DNA of 64,000 bases from Tubiluchus corallicola (Eukaryota; Animalia; Priapulida): contig JAQGDQ010000094.1 in assembly GCA_030141605.1 (NCBI GenBank), positions 496,001 to 560,000 on the forward strand, written 5' to 3'. The notes under the pieces were generated by a model. The model saw only the letters and a program-made list of their open reading frames with translations. It had not been told where the DNA came from and ran no database searches. Both the position numbers and the translations under genes were made by a program. Below are positions 2,293-61,518 of the stretch, piece by piece; positions within the stretch are counted from its first letter, which is position 1, and each line of letters begins with the position of its first letter.

Positions 2293-2361
2293 TATCTAAT
2301 ATTTGAAATAATTGAGAATCTGCATATTATTTGCAGAATAGTATAGTATGCTATGTTTTAG

Positions 2362-3259
2362 GTCTAGTTCTGGTGTACCAAAGGACTGGATGTCTCCCGT
2401 TATGGCAGCTATTGAAAGTGAGGAGGGTCTGTATGCATCGGGTGACTCAGGGATTGCTGAAAATGATGACTTTAATCCTGCTGAATATCGAGAAAATTTT
2501 CAAAATCGCCTACAGAATGATGATAGTCTTCTTGACTACAGCTTGCGTAAAACATTGGGCGCAACTTCAGAGACTTCCAATAACTCAGAAACGGATATTA
2601 ATGCCCGCACACCAGAAAGTACCGACCTTGGAGTTGCCTCAGATGTTGGCGCAGAAGAAGCATGGCATGATTTCGAGGATGGATTGTCAGAATCAAAGGG
2701 ACCTGACTCATTTGAGATTGCTTTTCGATTACGCAATGCTTCTATGGTGGCTTCACTACAGGAAGATCAAATTACCAAGGACATTTTGTCTTCAGGAACT
2801 GAAACTAGAGGTGCTCTAAATACTAATGAGGAAAAAGGATTTAATTGTGAAACTAGCCAAAAATTAGAGTTTGACATAAGCAATGAAGCCAGTGAGAAGG
2901 CACATTCTGGTGCAAGCCAAGAAGCGTGTGACAAACTAGAATGTGGCATGACTGATGGAGACACGGAGAAATCACAACATGGTGTAAGTGAAAAAACTCC
3001 TTATGATGAAACCAGTAAACAATCAGGCAACGATGTGAGTAAAGAAGCCAGTGAAAAGCTTGATTATGATGTGAACAGGGAAGCCAGTGAAAAGCCTGAT
3101 TGTGATGTAAGCAAAGAAGCCATTGAAGAACCTGTTCATGATGTAAGCAAAAAAGCCAGTGAAAATCCTGATATTGATGTAATCAACAAAGCCAGCAAGA
3201 AAACAAATTTTGAAGAGCTAGAACATAGTGATTCAGATTTGGAAGAAGGTTATGTGTAA
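2362..3259 (+). CDS. Probable terminal coding exon of the PPM1H-like gene: acidic, low-complexity tail with 12-aa repeats
   Basis: Long ORF (2348-3259 in the track). Acceptor ttttag ends at 2361 in phase 2, the same phase as the donor at 609/610 (AA|G = Lys, then SSSGVPKDW...). D/E/S-rich; stop TAA at 3257-3259. Confidence 0.62.
3032..3211 (+). repeat. Five tandem 36-bp coding repeats (DVSKEASEKxDx)
   Basis: Units start at 3032, 3068, 3104, 3140 and 3176 with consensus GATGTAAGCAAAGAAGCCAGTGAAAAGCCTGATnnT. More degenerate units extend back to about 2873. Confidence 0.85.
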
Positions 3260-41700: not shown

Positions 41701-44700
41701 GCCTATACTAGTAAAATAGTGACCGTGACTAGTAGCTACTAACTATTTAAAAGCTTAATGCATTTGAAACAATATTTGATCATAATTTCGACAACTGTGA
41801 CCTTCTATAACATTCTAATTTAAACAAGTACAGACAGCAATAAGCCTTTTATGCTATAAAGTGATGCCAGGACTCTCTTAATTCTTTTTAGGCAGTTTCA
41901 CGCTTTTAATAATTTAGACCACTTGTGCACCTACTAATGATTAATGATGACATACGGGCTCGTTTTTGTGCCTTGTAAATCCACTAATGGTCACCTGCCT
42001 GCAGATTGAGCCAAGTAAAACAAGGGTAGTAAAATATTCCCTTGGGTCAAATAAGGGACCAACTTGGAAACAAACATTTAGTTAGGAAAAATATGAGACT
42101 ACTCGCTGGAGACATCATCTTTAATGATAAGAATAAAAAGTCCATGAGCTTTATTAGAATCAGAAGCAGATATTCTTTATTGCCAAAAGATTTTTTAAAA
42201 ATCTGCTTTAAAAACTAATAAAGGGCATTCAACTTTTTATTCATGATAATAAACATTTAGATCCTTTAGGTAAATATTATCCCTGGTCTATACCCAAAAC
42301 AAGCTTTTTACAGTAAGTTGCTAACCCAACCAAGTATACTTCAACTGTGGTTTCTTTACTGCCACAGAGCTACTACTGGCTTTCAGTACTATCATGTTTA
42401 CTCTCAAATAAGGATAAGTTCGACGAAAGACGCAAGATACTTGAATTTTCTGAAACTACCTTCTCACATGGTAATGGAAAAACCAGGGCTGTCTCTCTCT
42501 CCTAGTCAATGCAACTGTGCTTTTCCTGTGTTTCATTTGTTGTGCCTCTGCAACTTTAATACGTGATTGTATGCTTTTATGTGTGATGTTTTTATTTGTA
42601 AATAATATAAAGAAACCAAAAAATTGGTTTTAGAATCTTTATGTGTTTCCCCCTTTTTATTTCAAGTCTTGTGTCTTTTTATTGTATTAATTGTGGGATT
42701 TTTTAATAATCAGCAAGGTGTGCAACTGGCTAATAACCACTAAAAAGAATTTCAACTAATTAAATAAATTCTTTCCTAGGATTAGGAAATTAGGTGTTTC
42801 ACAAATCTAACTCAGCCAGCACATGCATGGATATCACTGACAAACTGTATGTCTGTTCTCCATCACATAAATATGACAAACCAGTTATTAAAATTTAATG
42901 CAGAATTGAAAATATTACGGTTAACCTGTTTTTTACTCAAATACAGCCAAAGTTATACAACACACTTACATAAACTAACACTAGCTCAACAGTACCATAT
43001 CAAGGCCTTGCTCAAACGAATATCAAGTACCTGGCATAAAAGAGTTTTTCAACAACCATGAACAACAGCAAGTACATTTGTACATGAGTACATCTATGGA
43101 ATATTTGGCAAAATCCATATGGGCTGACAAAATCCTTACTTCAAAAGTTGAAAGAGTGCTAGCATACAAAAGATGTTTTTAGAGCACTCGGTGCTTGTTT
43201 AAAAGACTTGACATTGGGGGCATTAACAATACCACTGCTTAAACTGTTCCATTCCTGCACAACACGGTAGGAGAAAAATGCTTGCTGATATGTGTGCATG
43301 AATGCTGAATATATAGTTTTTGCTAATGACATCAATGTAACTCTCTATGAGGATTCTCAAAGAACTCACTCCGATCCAAATTTGTGGCCGGATTCACTAT
43401 CTTGAACATGCAGACAATTGTGTCATGGCTCTAATCTAGGGTAGGAACTGATATCGTTGGCAAGACGAAGACATCTTCTTTGGACTTTTTTATCTTCTCT
43501 TTAAAAGATACAGATTGCAGTGCCCTAATAACAACAGCATATTCCAACAAAGGACTAATCAAAAGGTTTGTATATAGGTACAGCAACTGACGGCTCAGGG
43601 CATACGACTCTCTAATGATACCAATTCTTTGTTTAGCAGTCTTACATGAGTAATATAATTGTTGCTACCATATGCAGAATATCAATTGGAAGGTGCTGCA
43701 TAGGAAGAGCAAGAAAGATGGTGGAATGCTTTTGCCCCCTAGTAAGGCCTACAAAAAGGTTAAGAAGATGCATTATGAGCATTTTGTGAATTCTTACAAC
43801 ATCATTGAATCATGACTAACACACATTAGGGAAACAAAGGCTGTTAAAGGGCAAGAAGAATTAATGAATTTTGCAGATGACTCGAGAATGGCCCCAGAAA
43901 TACTGAATCATTGACCAGTATTAACAAAATAGAAGAAATAAATAATCAGACAAATCTTTTGTGTATATTAGAGAAACTCCCAATGTACCTTTAACCAAGA
44001 CAGAAAACAGAAGCATATAAAATTAGAATAAGTCAAAAATGAAGTCCAACAGTTGACAATGTAGTGCATTTTGTTTAAGCTGCAGCTTTAGAAGCAACTG
44101 ATCCAGTTTTCGGTAATTTAGGGTATGCCCAGACCAAGAAAGAAGGCCCCCAGATAGTGTTTACACGGGCAGCAAAAATTAGACTCTGGTACCCTTTTCC
44201 TTATACTCGTGGGGTACGCAATTGTTAAGATTCAGTAGCAGTGAAGAGATGGTCTTTATTCGTACATAAGAACAACGACTGGCGCATTTCACCTAACCAC
44301 AGCTGTTAGGCCTGTGTCACACAGAAAAAGCCACAAAAAGCAAGCCATAATCCGTAAGGTATAAAGCGTCTTCCATCTTCCGTAAGGTGCATGTCATAAT
44401 TCGCAGTATGCGCCTTGCTTTGTATAACTATGCGGGAGACACAAAACTACTATATTTTAATATAATAGGTACTATAGTTTAATAGTTAAAATAATTTTAC
44501 TCATTACAGAATAACAGATTGTCAGTCGCATACGTTGTATATGCATAACATGATTGACTGGCATGCTGCCTCCTGCATGTAGTATACATTTATTATATGT
44601 ATTGTAGTAATATGGCAGTAGTAATTAAGTGCTGTGGGTTAAATATGCCTTTTAATGTTTATAGTACATCGATGTTATGAATTGTTTTATACGTAATTCT

Positions 44701-47700
44701 TATGAAATGAATTTTGCATAGAAAAGCTTAATTATGCAAATTTTCACATTAGTGATAAGCAAAAATTCCTTATGGCAAATGAAATTAATGGCCAAAGGCT
44801 CAAAACGGCTTGCAAAGCTCCACTAGAGACCTTGATAACATAGTTGCCCAATTCTGGCAGGTGGAAGTGTGTGAAGATGAAACCACTATTCTGAAGAAGA
44901 TATCAAGATGATTATATATATATACTAATACTAATCTGTAATAAAACATACAGAGAATGTACAGTAATAAAATGTTGTAGGAGGATTCAGTAATTCTACC
45001 TAAGGATAATCACTACCAATTGCCAACACTATTGACAATTGATAGTGATTATGCTTAGATAAACCCAATACCATTCTGAAGCAAGTATCCTGAGCTCCCA
45101 AAAACTTACCTGTGCTCCCTGTGGCACAGTCTAGATTGCAGGGTCGTAAAAACAAGCTACAAAATGACTGTGGAAATCTTAAATTTGCTAAATATGGCAT
45201 ATGCCGAGGAAATAAATGCCAAAAGTATTAATGGCAGCCCTAGAAAGATTTGGTATTAGCCTCACTTTGCAGTTAGTAAAACAAACAAGCCAGATAAAAA
45301 CAAGAATTGTGTTTAATTGTGCTGTTCAATTTGAAGGTACTACTCTCAACAGGAATGTTACGCAGGGCCCTGCTTCAGGAGTTGTGCTTAAATTTAGAAA
45401 AAACCAAATAGATTTCATGGCTGATCATGAATGCATGTTTCACCAAGCAAAGGTACTGCAGAGGATAGTGATATACAAAGATTTTTATGATGGGAAAATG
45501 GTTGTTTAAACGCATAACCAAAAGTCTACAGAATGGCCGTACACACATTCTGTGGAATGTGGTGACCAAGTGCAGCAGCTTTTGCACTCCAGAGTACTGC
45601 AAGGGATAACAGGCATTTGTATGATGAAAATGTATTGGAAGGCCATTAACTCCGATTTCCGATGATCCCGAGGATGCAGAACCATTGAGGCCAAATCGTC
45701 TGCTTTTGGCTCACAATCACGCTTTGCTGCCACAAGGTATTTTTTGAGACTGATCGATACAAACACAAGTGACAACGCATTCAGCTCTTAGCGACAACAA
45801 CAACAACAACAAAAAATAGACTATGCCAAAGAGAAATCTCAAAGTTAATGATGTGGTGCTTGTGAAGGAGATCAGATATCTGTAGCCACTGTGAAATATG
45901 TAACAAGCTCATGATGGCCTGAAGGAGTGAAGGATAGATTTTTGGAGCAACCCATACAGAAGCTTTGTCTTCTGAAGGGTGCTGACAAATTGCTTGTTGA
46001 ACATGTTTGTCAAAATGCTCTGGTCAAGTTTGCATTAGAGAGGGGGAGTGTTGCTGCCATATGTAGAATAGGAAGTTGGAAAGTGCTGGCCTAGTTATGA
46101 ATGGACTTTGTATTTGAAAGAGACCTTTACAATGGGTAGAATAATCTTCTTACACACTGCATACCTTTCAATGTAACCATTTTGGGCTGTACTCTTGCCA
46201 CTAGCATCTCTTCCTCTCACATTTCTATCTTCATCATCCTGCCTTCCCTTGCACATTTTTACTCAGCTTCACTGACAGACATTGCATCTCTTGCTCTGAT
46301 GGCACATATAGCTGTTACAGCTGGGCTTTAAGCATTTGAAGCAAAGTCTTTTCTTTCTGGACAGCTCCAATCTGTCTTCTGGCTTCATGGCAGCCAAGTT
46401 TGCACATTCAGTTACGAAGTGTTCACCTATGCAGATGCTGCATGTACTAGGTCTCTTTGACTCACCTGATATTTTGAATAAAAAATTTGTTAGGCAACTT
46501 GCTTTAGCATCTTTTCTCGCCGTGAGTTTCTGGCATCTGTTCTTTTTCGGTCTGTATATTCTAAACTGATTTAGTAATCATTAAATTTCAGTGATCACAT
46601 GGAAACCCGAGCCAAGATATCAGATCTTACCACCATAAGGCATCATGTGATTAAGTAAAAACATAGAAGGTATCAATAGTGACTTGTATAATTCTGAGAA
46701 AAGCACACTCAACAGTTTCAGCTGAAGAAGCCCACTGGTCAGACTGAGACTCAATACTGTCGAGATCTATTGTGGTCGTAAACATGTCAGAATCAAATTG
46801 TGATTTGATTTTAGCATATAATTTTAACAAAGCAGGGCTCCAATAGAAAGATGCATCCTTTATCTACACACTAATATAAAGAAAAGTTGAAACATACCTC
46901 CTATTCATAAAAAAATTACTGTTAGCGTCACGAGAACAGACTAAGACCGAGCGATTTCCTGAAATGTTTTCATTTGGGAGTTAGCAGATAGCAATATTTT
47001 TATCTACTGCTGTGTGCCACAGCCTAGGTGTTTTGGATATAAGCACGTGGTGCCTCCTGGTGTTTGTTTTTCCTAGTTTAGACAGGTGAGCTAGGTCAGG
47101 AAATAGGCCATTGGCCTCATTTCACAGTTAGCATATGAAAGAAGTGAGTCACCGGTATGCGGCAAAGATGTAAGTTTCATTTCTTCACATTTCGTCATGT
47201 CATATTATTATTAATTATCATTATACCAGTTACTTAATGTTTTGACGTTGGTTTAGCAGAAAGAATTTTTAATTTTTCTTCAGCTAAAACGAAGTCGAAC
47301 GCATGTCGCGTACAGTTTTATATCTCAGTCTGTGTACCTAGAAGAGACGGCCATATTGCTTTCGAGAACAGAACACCTGGACAAGGGTAGTACAGCATGG
47401 CTTCCGGGCAAGGACGAGATTTGTTGAGACTAAATGAAGAACAGCTTCAGCAAAAAACCGTACAAGAGTTAAGAAAGTTGCTACGGGATAAGGGATTACA
47501 AGTCGCTGGAAGCAAAGCAGAATTAGTCCAACGAGTACTGGACAGCGAGATTACTGCAGAGGTAACCACGCCTACTTCAAAGAGTGAGAGTGTTAAAACG
47601 GCTCGTGACCAATCAGGCGAGGTGGGAGTGATGCAAACGGACAACACCACGTCCAGCAGTGTGAAAACTTCTGCAACAAACTTAAGCAGGTTTGATTTGC

Positions 47701-50700
47701 ATGCCTTGAAAATTAAAGAACAGAAACTAAAATTACAAGCCATGGAAATCAAACATTTGAGCCTGCAAAAGGCTAGTCAGGGTTCTGCTAGTTCAGATGT
47801 GGCTTCGCCTGTAGCCAAAGAAATATCAAGTGCAGAAAAGGTCAATGAGTGGATTGAAAAGTCACACAAAGATGTCACAGAAGTCTCGTCACCTGAAGGG
47901 CTCATCAAACCCGAAGCTTACGTTACTATGGCTACCAATGATAAATACGCCATAGGTGCTCTAGTACTGGCTTCTTCGCTATGTAATGTTGGTATTACAC
48001 TTAGTTTAGCGATATTAATTACAACTGGAATTTCTAAACCCATAATGACGCAGATAAGCGCCACCTTTGATCACGTGGAGCTTGTGGAAGCTATTGACAG
48101 TTCACATGTAAAAAGTCTACAATTACTAGGACGGCCCGAATTAAAGGTGACTTTTACAAAACTGCATTGTTGGAGGCTAACTCAGTTCTCAAAATTTGAT
48201 TTTTGGATTCTGATGTAATTGTCCTGCAAAACATAGATGATTTATTTAGCTGGAACGAACTGTCAGCAGTTGCAGATATTGGCTGGCCTGATTGTTTTAA
48301 TAGCGGACTTTTCGTTTTTGAACCTAATCTTAGCACGTACAGTGAATTGAGGTCATTCGCTCAGTCAGATTCAAGCACATTCGACGGTGGAGAGCAAGGT
48401 CTACTAAACCAGTATTTTAAAGCCTGGAATACAGCTTTTGATAAACGATTGCCATACAGGTATAATGTAGCAGTAAAGCAGTTTCGAGAAAGTGTCAAGG
48501 TTGCTCATTTCATGGGTCCTAGTAAGCCCTGGGACAGTATACGCAGCATTTATCACAAGCAAGTGGCGCCAGCTACAGGTAAAACAGACTTTGAATCTGA
48601 AATGTTAAATATTTGGTGGTCACTTTACATTCATGAGGTCGAACCAAACTGGCCTCATGAATTAGAACTAATAAATAAAGCTAATGTTCAGCAGCACATT
48701 CCTACCCGAACAAAACTCAGTCCTGATGCACCTGAATTTGCCACTCGCTTACATGACAGGAGCAGTGTTCATAGAAAATTATACACATGATGACGGGGCG
48801 AGATATACCAGGCTTTTACAATTTTGCACGGGCGAAGCAAAACGGGTTGTCGAAAGTTGCAGTTATATGGACCCGCAGATCGCATACAGTCATGCTAAGC
48901 AAATGCTTATTGAACGTTTCGGGTCACCCTTTATTGTAACACAAGCGTGGTTGGCTAAAATAAATGAGTTTGCAGTCATAAAAATAATGAAAAGGAAAAA
49001 CTCAGGGAATTTTCTGACTTGATGATTGGTTGTGTAGAGACATTAAAGGCCATGGACAATTTAGCCGAAATAAATACACAAACAAGTTTGCTTCAAGTCA
49101 TTAAGAAACTCCCATTCCGTTTGCAAGACAAATGGAGAGACGTTGTTACCAAGTTAAATAAACATGATGGCAGAAATCCTACAATTTACGACGTGGTGGG
49201 ATTTGTCAAAGAGGCGACTGAAAAAATAAACCATCCCGTGTTTGGTGACCTTGCAACCGGTGGTCAAATGAACATTACAAAACGCAAGAATAAATTAGCA
49301 ACTAGGAATTTCGCATGCACTACCTTTCGAACAAGAAGTTCATCCAGAGAAGAAAAATCGAGTCAAACAGGCGGAACGCCAAAGGATAGAAAATTAAGCA
49401 GTAGAGATGTCAGAAAATGTGTTCTGCAACTCAGCCGAGCATGTTTCTCTAAAAAACTGTGAACAGTTTAAAGACAAGTCGGAAGAAGAGAGACTACAGT
49501 TTGCTCGGAAAAGTCGCTTATGTTTTAACTGCTTACAGAAAGGGAACCAAAGAGCTGGAAGCTGTTACAAACCAGGCTGTACAAGACAGGGATGCAGAAG
49601 AAAACATTCTGCTCTGCTTCATGACGCTCTGGAGAAGTGGGCTCCTTCCAATGGCGAGAGGTCAACAAATGTTGAAGCAACAAGTTGCGCTGTCACTACA
49701 ACCAAACTGTCAACAAGGGCTGTGCTCCCCATCACTCCTGTAAAGGTACAGGTGCAAGGCGGACGTCCAATTCAGACAATGGCTTTGTTGGACCCAGGAT
49801 CAACTAATACGTTCTGTTCCAAGGCCATATATGATGAGCTGGGAGCTGTTGGCAAGAAACAAGTCGTGTCACTGACTACAATTGAAAAGAAGCATTCAAA
49901 AATACATACTTCTGTGACCAAGATGTACGTCAGTAAGTTGGATGGATCAAACAAAATGAAACTTCCCTTTGTCTTTGTCAGGCCATCTTTGATGTTGGAT
50001 GTGACTGACTATTTGGTAGACGAACAAGACATTAGTAACTGGCCTCATCTCAAAGATGTTCCTTTGACGCTAGCTGATTCACGTGAACTGCAGCTCGGGT
50101 TAATTATAGGACAAGACGTCTCTGATGCATTAATGCCTTTAGAAACACGCTGTGGGCCAAGAGGAGTTCCGTATGCAACAAGGACTAGACTTGGATGGAC
50201 ATTAAATGGCCTGATAGGAGGCGGCAATGAGGACACTAAAAAGCTGTCAAACAACCTTCTTCAGGCAGAACAGGTTACCAGCCAGCGACAAGTCGAAAAA
50301 TTTTGGAAAATGGACGCTGTTGACGATAGCATACAGTACTCCCATGACGATAAGTTGGCGCTGAGCATTTGGGAGAAGTCCATCACCAAAAGAAATGGTC
50401 ACTACGAATTGGAGATACCTTTTAAGTCTAATGATGACAACATTCCTGACAGTTTTCAAATGGCTTCAAAGAGGTTGGCAAGCCTTCGCTGTAGACTCAG
50501 CAAGAATAAGTTGTTGCATGAAAAATACTCCCAAGCCATGGCTGATCTGCTCCAAAAGGGATACGCAGAAGAAGTTGTTGAACATGATACGAATGTTGCA
50601 ACATGGTACTTGTCACATTTTCCAGTTTTTAATGAGAACAAACCCGAAAAAACTAGGATCGTATTTGATTGTTCGGCAACAGAAGACGCAGTCTCTCTCA

Positions 50701-53700
50701 ACATGTTGGCACTACAAGGTCCAGATCTGACTAATAAATTGCTTGGTGTCCTGCTATGCTTTAGAAAGTATCCAGTAGTAATCATGGCTGATGTTCGTGA
50801 GATGTTTCACCAGGTGTACGTAGCACCGAAGAATAGGGACATGTTGAGATTTCTCTGGTGGAATGATGGAAACCTAGATGCGCCACCCTCCATATTTCGA
50901 ATGACAGTCCACCTTTTTGGCGGTGTGTGGTCGCCCAGCGTAGCTTCATTTGCTCTCCAACAGACAGCTAGAGATAACGTCAACTGTTTTGATGAGCATG
51001 CATTAAATACGGTGGTACATAGCTTCTATGTCGACGACCCCTTTAAATCTGTGGAAACTGCAAAAGAACCAATCGATTTGATGTCAAAATTAATACAGAT
51101 TCTAGACACTGGAGGTTTCCACTTGACCAAATGGATGAGTAACGACAGAGACGTATTAGCATGTGTGCCAATTGAAGAACGAGGAAAGAACATTAAGAAT
51201 CTTGATCTAACCCAGGACGATCTACCAAATGAACGAGCCTTAGGGGTTAAATGGGATGTCAAAAGCGATATACTTGGCATTCAGGTTAAGCTGCGAGAAA
51301 AGCCAAGCACCAAGCGGGGACTACTTAGGTCATTAGCAAGCACCTATGATCCCCTAGGCATGGTCTCGCCTTTCATTTTACAAGCGAAAAGACTGTTTCA
51401 GAACGAATGCCGGATCCAGGAAAAATCATGGGATGATAGACTGGAAGAAGAGACTGAGAAAAGTTGGGATAAATGGAAATCTGATTGTCCTGCACTAGAA
51501 TACTTTACGCTAGACAGATGCCTGAAGCCAAGAGATTTTGGAAGAATTGCTGACTTGCAGCTGCATCACTTCAGCGATGCATCCCAGTATGCTTACGGCA
51601 CTGTAACTTATGCACGGATGGAAAATGCTGATGGAGTTGTACACACAGCATTTGTAATGGCAAAGTCTAGGCTAGCACCTATGAAAAGCCTAACCATACC
51701 ACGCCTTGAGTTGTGCACAGCAGTATTAGCCTCAACTGTCGACAAACAACTGAGAAGAGAATTGTCCATACCCATCAGCGAGTTCGTGTTTTGGTGTGAC
51801 AGCACTATAGTGCTTCAATACATACGCAACACCACAAGACGTTTCCATACTTTCGTGCAAAATAGAGTGACTACCATACTAGAAACTTCGTCGCCAGTTC
51901 AGTGGCATTATATCAGTACCGCAGATAATCCAGCTGATGACGTATCCCGAGGAATGGACGCCAATGCCTTAGTAAAATCTCAGCGTTGGAAATATGGTCC
52001 TAGTTTTCTGCGAAAAGCCCAACATGAATGGCCGCAGCATGATCCGAGCAAAGAAAATGATGAACTTAACGACGATAAAGAAGTCAAGCAGACGACATGT
52101 TCCACTACTGTAAAACACATACAGGATAGAAACGACACAATTAGCAAGCACATTGAACATTTTTCGTCATTTTACAACCTCAAGAAAGCAGCAGCTTGGA
52201 TTCTTCGTCTGAAGGACATTTTGCAAAAGAAGATCAGAGGAGAAAAACCTGAAGTACCTCCAAAGTTAACAGTGCAAGAGCTGACAAGAGCTCAAGATGC
52301 ATTAGTAAAATTCGTTCGGACTCAGAACTTTGGCATGGAATATAAGGCGCTTACACAAAAATCTGCTAAATTGATGCGCATCCCTAAATCAAGCAGGCTA
52401 CGAAAACTTGATCCGTTCATTTGCGAGAAGGGTTTGCTACGTGTTGGTGGACGACTGAAGGCGCCAGGCACCCTATGATATTACCGAGAAAGCATAAGCT
52501 GTCAGAGCTAATCATTCGTCATTACCACGAAACGAACGGCCACATTGGCAGGGAACATGTCATAGCTTTAGTAAGAAATGAATTTCGGATAATTCATGCA
52601 AGAGCCTTGGCACGCAAAGTCCTGTACGAATGCCGACATTGCAGGCTTCGCAAGCCATCTTTCCTTGATCAAAAGATGGCAGATTTGCCTATTGACAGAC
52701 TACAGCCATCAGACGCTTTTACCACTATTGGCATTGATTGTTTTGGCCCGATACAGACCAAGAGAGGTCGCTCACACATTAAACGCTATGGAGTCATCTT
52801 TACATGCCTAGCTACACGCAGTATTCACTTGGAAGTCCTATTTGACATGTCCACTGATTCGGTTATAAAGGCGATTAACAGATTTTGCTGCCGCCGAAGG
52901 AAGCCAGACAAAATCAGGTCAGATTGTGGGACTAATTTTGTAGGAGCAAGCAGAGAGCTGAGAAAGTCTATAGCCGAGTGGAACAATGACGTCATACATT
53001 CAGAGCTTCTTCAGCGGCAAATAGAATGGCAATTCAACCCACCAAGAGCCCCACACATGGAAGGTGTTTGGGAGTCTCTCATTAAGAGTGTGAAGAAGAT
53101 TCTCTTTCCAACGAACAAACCTTGGATGATGAAGGCTTGGCAACCCTGTTTTGTATAGTTGAAAATATAGTTAATAGCAGACCGCTAACTACAGTTTCTG
53201 ACGATGTTGACGACTTCAATCCGTTGACTCCGAATCACTTTCTTCAGATCAGCGCAGTTCCAAACCTGCCTTTGGGAAAGTTTTGTCAGGCAGATCTCTT
53301 TCGACGAAAGTGGAGACAAATACAGTATCTCTCGGATATCTTTTGGCGCAGATGGTTGACTGAATATTTGCCCACTCTACAGACTCGAAGCAAATGGAAC
53401 AAGGAGCAGAAGAATGTTGAAATAGGAGACATCGTATTAGTTCTGGATGAGACACCAAGGAATCACTGGATGCTAGGACGGATCATTGAAGCACGGAAAA
53501 GCAGTGATGGACTAGTGAGAAGTGTGATGTTGAAGACTAGAGATGGGACTCTAAAACGACCAATTCATAAAATAAGTTTAATCGAATGTAACAATTAGTT
53601 GATTTTGTTAAGCATTCATAAACTGTATGTTTAAGTTAAACTTTGAAGTAGATGTATGTCAATTTAGTCAGTCATGATATGTTATTACACTGTTGGTTTC

Positions 53701-56700
53701 CTTTAATTTTGTAAATGCTGCAGGAGAGCATTTAAGGAGGCAGTGTTTTGGATATAAGCACGTGGTGCCTCCTGGTGTTTGTTTTTCCTAGTTTAGACAG
53801 GTGAGCTAGGTCAGGAAATAGGCCATTGGCCTCATTTCACAGTTAGCATATGAAATAAGTGAGTCACCGGTATGCGGCAAAGATGTAAGTTTCATTTCTT
53901 CACATTTCGTCATGTCATATTATTATTAATTATCATTATACCAGTTACTTAATGTTTTGACGTTGGTTTAGCAGAAAGAATTTTTAATTTTTCTTCAGAT
54001 AAAACGAAGTCGAACGCATGTCGTGTACACTAGGTAATAGGAATGCTTCAGAAAAAAGAACCAAACTGTAAACACTGAAAAGTTAAAAAGAGCTTCAGAT
54101 GAATTTTTTCAATGTGCGCCATTTTACAGTGTCTGTGTGGGCCAGTAAGTGGCGTACTCTACCGGCGTTGTTTTGTAACTTTTGATTTTCTTTCGAAACG
54201 CGGCACAAATAGCAAAGAAGGGTTGCAGTTTATACAATGAAAATTGGAACATACGATACTTTGAGGCTTCATACTGTACAAAAAATATGACTGTATGAAG
54301 AAGAAAGCCAATGTTCTAGCACATTAAGTGCTTGTTAAGAACAATAATTTTCTTGCTTGTAGTCCTTCGTTGTTTTGAATACATGACTTTTTGTATCATG
54401 CAACTTTGAAGGTTTTTGACTTTCCAGCAGATTTCACTTTAAAGATGTTTTCACGTGTCAGCTCCAAGATGCGTAAAGATTAGGAAACTTGAAACTTTGA
54501 AGCCCTGTACATTTCCTTGAGTACTGTTTCTTTCAGTTGCTCAGCACATATATACACTCACATACTGACTGACCTTACTGACTAACCAGCTAACTAGCTA
54601 TGATTTACTTAGTGTCGGTTAGTTATTTAATTAGTTAGTGTTGGTCTAGCTAAGCTAATCAGAGAGTCAATCAATTAGTTTTGGCAATTTTGTGGTATGG
54701 CAGGTTTGGTGGTATGGCAGGTTTGGCGATATGGCACATTTAGCACTATGGCGGTATAGCAGGTTTGGCAATGTGGCATTTGGCGGGTGGTGTTGGTATG
54801 GGAAGGAGGTAGAGTGTCGACAATGGGACTGATATAGGAAGGTAGAAGGGTGTTAGGGTGTGAGGAAAACCACCTAAACTGCAAGTGCGCCACAATGGCC
54901 CGAAATAAAGACCACCGAGCATTCCCTTTGGAATGCCGCTATGAACATTAATCCACTCATAGATAATACATTTAAAACTCCTGACAAAGACAATTTGTTA
55001 CCTAGAGTCTTAATTGATACAAAGGATCACATTTCAGCCCCTTTAGCACATGTTATAAACTTATCCCTCGAAAATGGATGTATTCCTAATAAGCTAAAGG
55101 AGTCGGTAATTGTTCCTTTGTTTAAAGCTAAGAACCCTATGGACTTGAGGAATTATAGACCCATCTCCCTCCTACCATTTTTTCTAAAATTTTTGAAAAC
55201 TTTTTGAGTTCAGTTGTCAGATTACCTAAACAAAAAAAAATATTATTAATACAGAACAGTTTGGGTTCAGGAAAGGTTGTTCAACTGAAATAGCTTTAGT
55301 TAAAATTGTAGAAAACAAAATAATTAAATACAGAAGGTAAAAAAGGTCACTTGGTATTTTTTGCTACCTGTCAAAAGCTTTTGACTCGGTCGATCATGAT
55401 ATACTACTATCAAAACTATTTTACTATGGAATCAGGGACAAGGCTCATCAGCGGTTAGAAAATTACCTTAAAGAGCATACACAAGTAGTTAAATATAATG
55501 GTTGTTTCTCTTCAGAAAAAATATAACTCATGGTGTGCCGCAAGGGTCAATTTTGAGACCACTTTTGTTCTAAATATATATAAATGATTTATTACATTTC
55601 CTAATTAGTTCTGTGGAAGTTGTAACTGTATATTTTTAGGTGCTGCCATCTATTAACTAATCACTTTACATTTTACCAGCTAAACTCACCCATAATATAA
55701 TTGTTCGGTCCAGTGAATATGCATACTCACTGGATCTCTCCCTATTTTACTGTAATGGTATTTGTGAAGCCAAGTTTGCATAATTACCTATACCTATATA
55801 TACTGACTGGATTCTACTTCTAGTCACTCTCTGTCTCACTCTCAATGCAGTGCAGAAGTCATGCTAGTCGTGCTACACAACTGTCTAACTCACACTCTGT
55901 GCAGTGCAGCAGTCGTGATCCTCATTTTACTTACTGTCTAACTCTCAGTGATCAGTGCAGGACATTCTTGTCCTCAGTGTGCAGTGTAGCAGTCATTCTA
56001 CATATGTGTATGTAGTCTAATAAATGTTTCAGTTTTGTGCAGATATGTGGTATAGTGTTTTATTCTTTTTCTACAAAGTGTTCAACTACAACTTCATACA
56101 AGACTTTCACAAGTTCCAAAATGATTCAATATGCTGACGACACTAGCCTCCTTTTTAATATTAATCAGTTCAATGCGCAAAACACAGACAAGATAAATGA
56201 TGAACTCGAACAAATTCCTATGTGATTCAAAATTAATAAGCTTTCCCCAAATCCGTCAAAAACTAAATACATTGTTTTTAGGTCGCGTTATAAAAATATT
56301 CTAAGTAATATTGACATCAACATAGCTCAGGTGCCCATAACATGAGTAAATGAAATGAAATTTTTAGGTGTAATCATTAATGAATTTTTAGATTGGCAAG
56401 CACACATTAATAAGCTATGAGTTAAAATGTCTAAAAACATAGGAATTATTTAACATATAAAACAATATACTTCCAAAAAAACATATGATTTCACTATACA
56501 GTAGTCTTGTTTTGCCATATCTGACCTACTGTGCAATCCTGTGGGGTACAACGTATGCCAGTGTGTTAAACAGTATGACAACGCAAATGCAACCGTCAGA
56601 TGTATAACTTACGGAAAAGATTCCAGATAGGCAACAATTATTTCAATGAAAACAGAATTTTATTATTTGATAATTTAGACAAATGATTAAAAATAGCCCT

Positions 56701-61040: not shown

Positions 61041-61518
61041 TGTAACAATACCATAGATATGGTTTGTTTAGATAAAAGATCTTGGTGATTGCTTAGGAGG
61101 GTTCTGCATTCGAGACTGTCATGCTGCTCTGATCTTCTTTTTTCACTTCTTCAGTTTTGTCACTAAGTGCAGGTTGCATATACAAGCTAAATTCTTCACG
61201 CCATTTTTTCCATGCTTGTGACAGATTGCGTGATTCGAAGTTTAGTGCGTTAGGTGGTTTTAGCTGATTCATAGTTCTCTACAAATTTGCCGTCCGAATA
61301 AATACTCAAAACAACTAGTTCACTTCTGACACCATGTTACACGCTACAATAATATTAGCAACCAGACAAATGCGTGCATAATAAAGTAGTATTTATTAAA
61401 CTAATTAGGAACTTAAACAAAGAAGATCAGAGCAGCATGGCAGTCTCGAATGCAGAACACTCCTAAGCAATCACCAAGATCTTTTATCTACACAAACCAT
61501 ATCTATGGTATTGTTACA
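61041..61518 (-). mobile_element. Gypsy-derived fold-back element: LTR + PBS + gag start joined to an inverted partial LTR
   Basis: 100-bp inverted repeats 61041-61140 and 61419-61518 (3 mismatches); TSD TGCAC at 61036-61040 and 61519-61523. Minus strand: 184-bp LTR 61518-61335, PBS TGGTGTCAGAAGT 61334-61322, gag-like MNQLKPPNALNFESRNLSQAWKKWREEFSLYM from 61272. Confidence 0.85.

Follow-up and report, generated by a model that had tools for sequence, protein, structure and literature searches.

A glycogenin-derived GT8 domain within the gag region of a BEL/Pao-type retrotransposon family in the priapulid Tubiluchus corallicola

Retrotransposons of the BEL/Pao group (Belpaoviridae) have long terminal repeats (LTRs) of 0.2-1.2 kb, total lengths of 4.2-10 kb and a target-site duplication (TSD) generated on integration (PMC8742986), and are expected, according to the ICTV description, to carry an 18-nt site that binds a tRNA-Arg or tRNA-Gly primer. 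Fixed accessory enzymes are rare among LTR retrotransposons and have pointed to host controls on transposons (AlkB/m6A, dUTPase, exonucleases); how a domain that primes carbohydrate synthesis, retained inside Gag, might fit into the replication cycle as known is not obvious. Glycogenin combines a catalytic domain with a C-terminal part that binds glycogen synthase (as outlined in the pertinent part of PMC12267440). Here we analyse a 64,000-nt stretch of the Tubiluchus corallicola genome (the window; assembly GCA_030141605.1, contig JAQGDQ010000094.1, positions 496,001 to 560,000, forward strand), in which a BEL/Pao-type element at 47029-54029 contains within its gag a glycogenin-derived GT8 domain. 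The domain, first noticed by inspection of the sequence without database searches (the sequence-only reading), is cargo of a family of elements and not unique to one insertion.

The open reading frame (ORF) that starts at the gag ATG (47397) encodes a SAP domain at residues 17-49 (Pfam E 7.9e-09) and enters, in frame, a GT8 domain (47913-48646; Pfam E 1.9e-10) whose coding stretch is free of introns. Residues 173-269 of this ORF and the next ORF together cover the whole catalytic domain of glycogenin-1, which is also the best structural match of both halves (E 1e-20 and 1e-36), as the sequence-only reading of an intronless glycogenin catalytic domain had proposed; an AlphaFold model of the C-terminal half only (pLDDT 64) likewise found glycogenin as its best structural match (E 3e-09). 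The absence of the glycogen-synthase-binding C-terminal part, also noted in that reading, is borne out by the alignment, which stops after the last GT8 helix, and because of it we call the domain glycogenin-derived and not a glycogenin. GT8 is placed after the SAP/coiled-coil start and upstream of an LxPxAxxF/W motif that is found in 28 of the 65 scorable BEL/Pao relatives (4/1300 in shuffles); the N-terminal gag region that hosts it is of low complexity and spans 198-566 residues in these 65 relatives. A SAP domain at the start is ordinary in this setting, being present in 6 of 120 BEL/Pao relatives; GT8 was detected in none of the 120 best full-length relatives with Pfam and a GT8 profile. 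At its borders the domain has neither a poly(A) tract of its own (the longest A run in 48600-48770 is 4) nor a flanking duplication, as a processed, LINE-made retrocopy would.

The element that hosts the domain is a single LTR retrotransposon of 7001 nt (~7.0 kb). Its LTRs, 286 nt each (47029-47314 and 53744-54029), differ at 3 of 285 compared bases (~1%), have TG...CA termini and are bounded by a 5-bp TSD, CTAGG, at 47024-47028 and 54030-54034; 9 of the last 10 bases before the 3' LTR are purines, as expected of a polypurine tract. LTR size, element size and TSD all lie inside the BEL/Pao ranges, and the Pfam order along the element (SAP, GT8, RVT_1 for reverse transcriptase (RT), Peptidase_A17 (Pao), Integrase_H2C2, rve, DUF5641), with a protease motif upstream of RT recognised by eye, matches the BEL/Pao layout of gag followed by protease, RT, RNase H and then integrase (PR-RT-RH-IN) with a Pao A17 region. 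Each of the best 120 long relatives of the pol ORF is a Gag-Pol protein of the BEL/Pao group and has PF05380, so that by the grouping of its Pol sequence the element is BEL/Pao-type, in agreement with the initial assignment. Identity to these relatives is 36-46% over ~1000 residues, and no close relative was present in the protein collection searched; those that are named are mostly from echinoderms, with others from a nemertean, a crustacean, amphioxus and fishes. No TGG-led tRNA-type primer site lies behind the 5' LTR, the only TGG being ~63 nt downstream, and because the tRNA-Arg/Gly site is absent we use 'BEL/Pao-type' in preference to textbook semotivirus. The features of the element are as follows.

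47024-47028, no strand: 5' TSD (CTAGG)
47029-47314, + strand: 5' LTR, 286 nt
47315-47325, + strand: primer-site position, not of tRNA type, complementary to the predicted LTR splice junction
47397-47912, + strand: gag start with ATG, SAP (47445-47543), Ser/Thr-rich stretch and coiled-coil-like stretch (by eye)
47913-48197, + strand: N-terminal half of GT8, in frame with the ATG; TNDKY at 47934, TFTKL at 48150; frameshift at ~48198
48200-48646, + strand: C-terminal half of GT8; DSD at 48206, GWPDCFNSG at 48281, FDGGEQG at 48380, AHFMG at 48503; 10 codons missing at ~48470-48475
48647-48771, + strand: Gag linker, in frame with GT8; LxPxAxxF/W motif at 48716-48739; ends at a deletion
48772-49700, + strand: remaining gag core and zinc-knuckle region; frame changes at ~48981 and ~49430
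49701-53598, + strand: pol, with protease motif (by eye), RT (50763-51116) and Pao A17/RNase H (51309-51803)
49701-53598, + strand: pol, continued, with integrase (52493-52975) and DUF5641 (53308-53580); frame changes at ~52470 and ~53110
53734-53743, + strand: purine-rich tract before the 3' LTR
53744-54029, + strand: 3' LTR; GT..AG stretch resembling an intron at 53885-53998
54030-54034, no strand: 3' TSD (CTAGG)

The window copy is dead: it consists of seven ORF pieces separated by six frame changes (~48198, 48771/48772, ~48981, ~49430, ~52470 and ~53110). The proposal that GT8 is read in one frame with its surroundings therefore stands at both ends, where the domain is entered in frame from the ATG and its C-terminal half continues in frame into the linker, and fails in the middle, where a one-base frameshift at ~48198 splits it between ORFs 47397-48218 and 48200-48790. 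In addition, the 10 codons that include Tyr195 and Tyr197 (the acceptor-tyrosine loop) are missing at ~48470-48475, and a larger deletion at 48771/48772 has taken out the beginning of the gag core and altered the frame, leaving 32 codons between the linker and core motifs compared with a median of 88 in 28 relatives; on both sides of this deletion, contigs continue into other sequence for at least 161 letters as loose ends. The best explanation of these data is a young, broken copy of its family.

Evidence on the sister copies comes from short contigs of four public DNA runs (X1-X4) belonging to two studies, X1 and X2 being from one sample. No RNA run was listed as containing the element, and the one run presumed to be RNA contributed no contig to it. 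Contigs cover the whole GT8 domain in each of the three runs X1, X2 and X3, and those that bear it differ from the window by 10/117, 11/175 and 14/146 letters (6-10%), far more than the ~1% that separates the two LTRs, which identifies them as other insertions and not alleles. Diverged sister copies thus carry the domain, as the sequence-only reading would have it, and because the GT8 variants are as diverged as those of the N-terminus and gag (12/134 and 20/287), its presence goes back as far as the family sampled. The frameshift at ~48198 is absent from X1 and X2 contigs and is reproduced letter for letter in an X3 contig, so that this break is real, not an assembly error, and copy-specific; the frame change at ~48981 is likewise absent from sister contigs. 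Three contigs (one each from X1, X3 and X4) bridge the border between GT8 and the linker, and the 5' border is traversed by the window itself and by two overlapping X3 contigs. Where the window copy lost the tyrosine loop, an X2 contig departs from it at 48474 with 40 extra letters. We also observed a second length variant at 48465-48475, 10 letters longer than the window, in X1 and X2 contigs, which, besides the 10-codon loss, indicates that the loop was hit more than once. Contigs with 1 and 14 other letters cross the pol frame change at ~52470 without a gap, and defective lineages or alleles are accordingly common. Contig depth over GT8 is similar to that over pol, with the N-terminus deeper; such depth does not measure copy number, and no weight is placed on it. 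None of the contigs listed at 80% likeness had exon-like ends, a weak hint that the host glycogenin gene is not close to the insert.

The domain is 44-53% identical to animal glycogenins over ~255 columns (50-53% for the best) and in a quick tree of 69 rows falls among them without a sister group; its branch measures 1.46 changes per column, the median being 0.24. Compared with 117 glycogenins, it retains the residue in 62 of the 68 columns with a conservation of 95% or more, then in 22/29 and 37/69 columns of the successive classes and in 15 of the 74 variable ones; because most near-invariant columns are kept and most variable ones are not, change is concentrated where glycogenins tolerate it. 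The motifs TNDxY, TFTKL, DxD and AHFxG (with the metal-binding His) are all present. Of the 31 GT8 differences listed among the copies, 14 are synonymous, compared with an expected fraction of 0.25 taken from the observed mutation spectrum (p=0.012, dN/dS ~0.4; 40 of 102 rows, polarity unknown, one row beside the break left out and neighbouring changes counted singly); excluding one contig found in X2 only, the count is 11 of 23. These comparisons suggest that GT8 has probably been kept by selection in the family. On the alternative named in the sequence-only reading, neutral evolution together with near identity to the host gene, the data show a domain ~50% identical to any glycogenin found and yet constrained.

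The explanation we prefer, with a probability of about 0.42, is that this BEL/Pao-type family carries a glycogenin-derived GT8 in the gag linker which would be translated in unbroken copies and would, with Mn2+ and UDP-glucose, self-glucosylate Gag. A spliced glycogenin mRNA would have been co-packaged and copied into the gag linker by two in-frame template switches, likely long ago, and purifying selection would have acted on GT8 in the family ever since. The product of an unbroken copy would be SAP-coiled coil-GT8-linker-capsid-nucleocapsid(-Pol), encoded by one continuous ORF, and the domain would act as a Mn2+/UDP-glucose transferase on its own Gag chain. With the tail gone, glycogen synthase would not be recruited in the known way, and the likeliest chemistry would be a short self-glucosylation of Gag; the resulting short alpha-1,4-glucans might tie particles to glycogen-rich cytoplasm or, alternatively, assembly might be aided through the glycogenin dimer surface. 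GT8, being probably kept by selection, likely gives the particle a sugar-transferring part. That a lineage is active at present and builds such self-glucosylating Gag, with particles coated by short glucans without glycogen synthase and transposition linked to host UDP-glucose and glycogen stores (e.g., those of oocytes), is rather doubtful. Capture and retention of a host mRNA, as initially proposed, is backed by diverged sister copies that carry GT8 under constraint; a single polyprotein reading was not seen. The further suggestion that nucleic acid or host defence proteins are targets of GT8 found no support. Baculovirus P13, considered as a source of the domain, is rejected, as GT8 groups with animal glycogenins and has no viral structural match at E<=0.001.

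Several observations weigh against self-glucosylation of Gag by a long-resident enzyme. Asp163, invariant in the 117 glycogenins, is replaced by Glu in the window copy, and as no sister difference at this codon appears among the 40 of 102 rows listed, Glu may be family-wide; the equivalent rabbit residue, for which mutant structures exist, is presumably needed for full activity. The synonymous excess derives from those same 40 rows of unknown polarity, and the pol control (3 of 11 differences synonymous, from few rows) is no better than neutral. A fast-evolving host glycogenin could account, wholly or in part, for the long GT8 branch. No divergent contig bridges the 5' border of GT8 by the 31-letter rule among 24 of 135 pieces, the best reaching 27 letters (X3), and no single contig runs from GT8 through the linker into the gag core, so that an unbroken frame into gag was not seen. 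Finally, some contigs part from the element near the GT8 start: one of X1 (83 letters) does so at 47908, five bases ahead of the domain, and others, from X1, X2 and X3, at 47939, just inside it; GT8-less sisters or internally deleted derivatives may be the source of these exits, although no joint skipping GT8 occurs among the contig joints listed.

Two explanations are close rivals of self-glucosylation. According to the first, which we consider unlikely, GT8 is selected cargo that has no catalytic role and serves as a dimerisation module or a glycogen- or UDP-glucose-binding module on Gag, or as a decoy pairing with host glycogenin. The replacement of the invariant Asp163 and the loss of the glycogen-synthase tail fit this explanation, as does the position of the dimer-contact residues Asp160 and Trp128 within the kept GWPDCFNSG and FDGG motifs, and human GYG2 offers a precedent, being almost inactive as a glycogenin and having a regulatory role (both points from PMC12267440). 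Yet none of DxD, the His motif, TNDxY and TFTKL has been lost, and one sister contig bears additional sequence at the place where the window copy lacks the acceptor loop. Loss of Asp102 is described as abolishing glycogenin autoglucosylation, with Tyr195 as the acceptor (relevant parts of PMC13671788, PMC7046021).

The second close rival, likewise unlikely and next in rank, holds that GT8 is a tolerated passenger of no benefit to the element, constrained only since stops, frameshifts and misfolding would spoil the polyprotein. In its favour are the mild dN/dS of ~0.4, the change at Asp163, the absence of the domain from all 120 relatives, which means that BEL/Pao elements do not need it, and the contigs that part from the element where GT8 begins or just within it. 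Against this, a useless insert of 245 residues in the most length-variable part of gag should vanish by in-frame deletion, and it is the active-site motifs, not only core residues, that were kept over 1.46 changes per column.

A further alternative, that a divergent host glycogenin was captured recently or that GT8 is cargo of a defective side lineage mobilised in trans by a master element lacking the domain, is improbable. The X1 contig that leaves at 47908 shares the N-terminus, and the ~52470 frame change is shared by contigs with 1 and with 14 other letters, both of which would suit such a scenario, but the GT8 variants are as far apart as the N-terminal and gag variants, none of the listed joints skips GT8, and sister contigs are free of the GT8 frameshift. 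A processed glycogenin retrocopy that entered a single copy later, or an assembly chimera, would suit an intronless domain in a broken copy, but is very improbable and, as far as present data go, refuted by the lack of poly(A), border duplication, untranslated regions and C-terminal tail, by the frame at entry and exit, and by independent contigs from two studies that cover GT8 and bridge its 3' border.

Searches for the same architecture elsewhere returned no fusion, although such negatives are weak because transposon proteins are poorly annotated in protein collections. With the C-terminal half of GT8 as query against proteins of 344-2000 aa, none of the best 120 of 604 matches had a BEL domain, and with the SAP+GT8 ORF against 1.84 billion representatives, the best 150 of 921 matches were all obtained through the GT8 part (top identity 57%), 18 matches of odd length showing no GT8-BEL fusion in a Pfam check. 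The GT8 domain of a long glycogenin gave 13 matches among 554 candidates of 1793-5000 aa, none with a BEL domain; three amphioxus gene models of more than 3000 residues (P0274, P0389 and P0390) have a glycogenin domain near the C-terminus and no BEL domains. There were no matches of a BEL profile to 279 GT8 proteins or of BEL proteins to the 80 best-ranked among 445 GT8 loci from metagenomes, no fusion or related viral GT8 in IMG/VR, no fusion in metagenomes with the N-terminal ORF as query, no match in an exact look-up of 7 ORFs, and no usable match for the fusion in the ESM Atlas, where a glycogenin cluster was seen at 0.90. The open-access literature examined (Repbase, Dfam, subscription papers and supplements, including the element sequences of PMC3118150, being outside the scope) contained no glycogenin or glycosyltransferase cargo in LTR elements, and the string 'glyco' is absent from the main text of PMC3118150, a paper on BEL/Pao elements. 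Within these searches, the architecture had not been described before, as the sequence-only reading supposed.

Each LTR contains a 114-nt GT..AG stretch (47170-47283 and 53885-53998) with a GTAAGT donor and a pyrimidine-rich acceptor. Predicted removal of 53885-53998 produces a junction exactly complementary to the 11 bases behind the 5' LTR (47315-47325); the unspliced LTR pairs with only 7 bases, and controls reached 11 in 0/300 and 1/300 trials. The exact complement is the version of the 3' LTR, the 5' LTR differing at 47284, where most contigs carry the other letter. This complementarity suggests splice-dependent self-priming.

The element sits within a high-copy repeat (46830-47023 and 54035-54300), and many contigs join both flanks while skipping ~7.1 kb, as expected of empty repeat copies. 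Upstream lie older, unrelated BEL/Pao remnants with gag and pol pieces (43700-45640 on the + strand and 46120-46520 on the - strand), which lack GT8 and do not match the young element at the nucleotide level. Elsewhere in the window we noted a degraded remnant of a reverse transcriptase like that of long interspersed nuclear elements (54878-56500, by eye from ORF 54878-55207), an acidic open frame of 305 codons with short repeats (2342-3259, + strand) that is probably a host exon, and an inverted repeat at 61041-61518 with 103-nt arms, 96% complementary and 272 nt apart, resembling a miniature inverted-repeat transposable element.

Should the domain be active, it would show that a retroelement can profit when its particles are glucosylated or attached to glycogen, and would provide a glycogenin variant that nature has released from glycogen synthase; should it be inactive, it still offers a clear example of a Gag linker tolerating an entire folded host domain. 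If Gag indeed glucosylates itself, this would be the first sugar transferase of an LTR retrotransposon found within the literature and protein searches made.

Compared with described BEL/Pao elements (PMC8742986), the Tubiluchus element has the same LTR and element size, PR-RT-RH-IN order, Pao A17 region and DUF5641, but differs in the GT8 within gag and in having no tRNA-Arg/Gly primer site. Its domain shares the GT8 catalytic fold with DxD and His motifs with animal glycogenin (GYG1; PDB 1ll2, 3t7m), from which it is set apart by the missing glycogen-synthase-binding part, Glu at Asp163, the acceptor loop deleted in the window copy and the fusion inside gag. Baculovirus P13 (discussed in part of PMC4133818) is also a predicted GT8 in a mobile genome of animals, but as a stand-alone gene of a DNA virus, and it is not a near relative of the element GT8. 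Among LTR elements, the giant Gypsy retrotransposons Burro/GYPSM1 of planarians likewise have host-like domains (MATH, BIR, BCL-2, SUMO, dUTPase) in frame in Gag-Pol (PMC6431247); these are linked to apoptosis and ubiquitin and lie behind Gag, and no glycosyltransferase is named, nor does 'glycosyl' occur, in the portion of PMC6431247 considered here. Orchid Gypsy elements with an AlkB demethylase shown to be active (PMC9289625) and rotifer LTR elements with a GDSL or DEDDy ORF3 (PMC5408684) have similarly fixed host-type enzymes, which, in the passages that describe them, are encoded by separate extra ORFs and not inside gag, and act on nucleic acids or lipids and are not sugar transferases. 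In-frame capture of host domains by LTR retrotransposons is thus already known, and the glycogenin GT8 is an unusual cargo, so far of one species.

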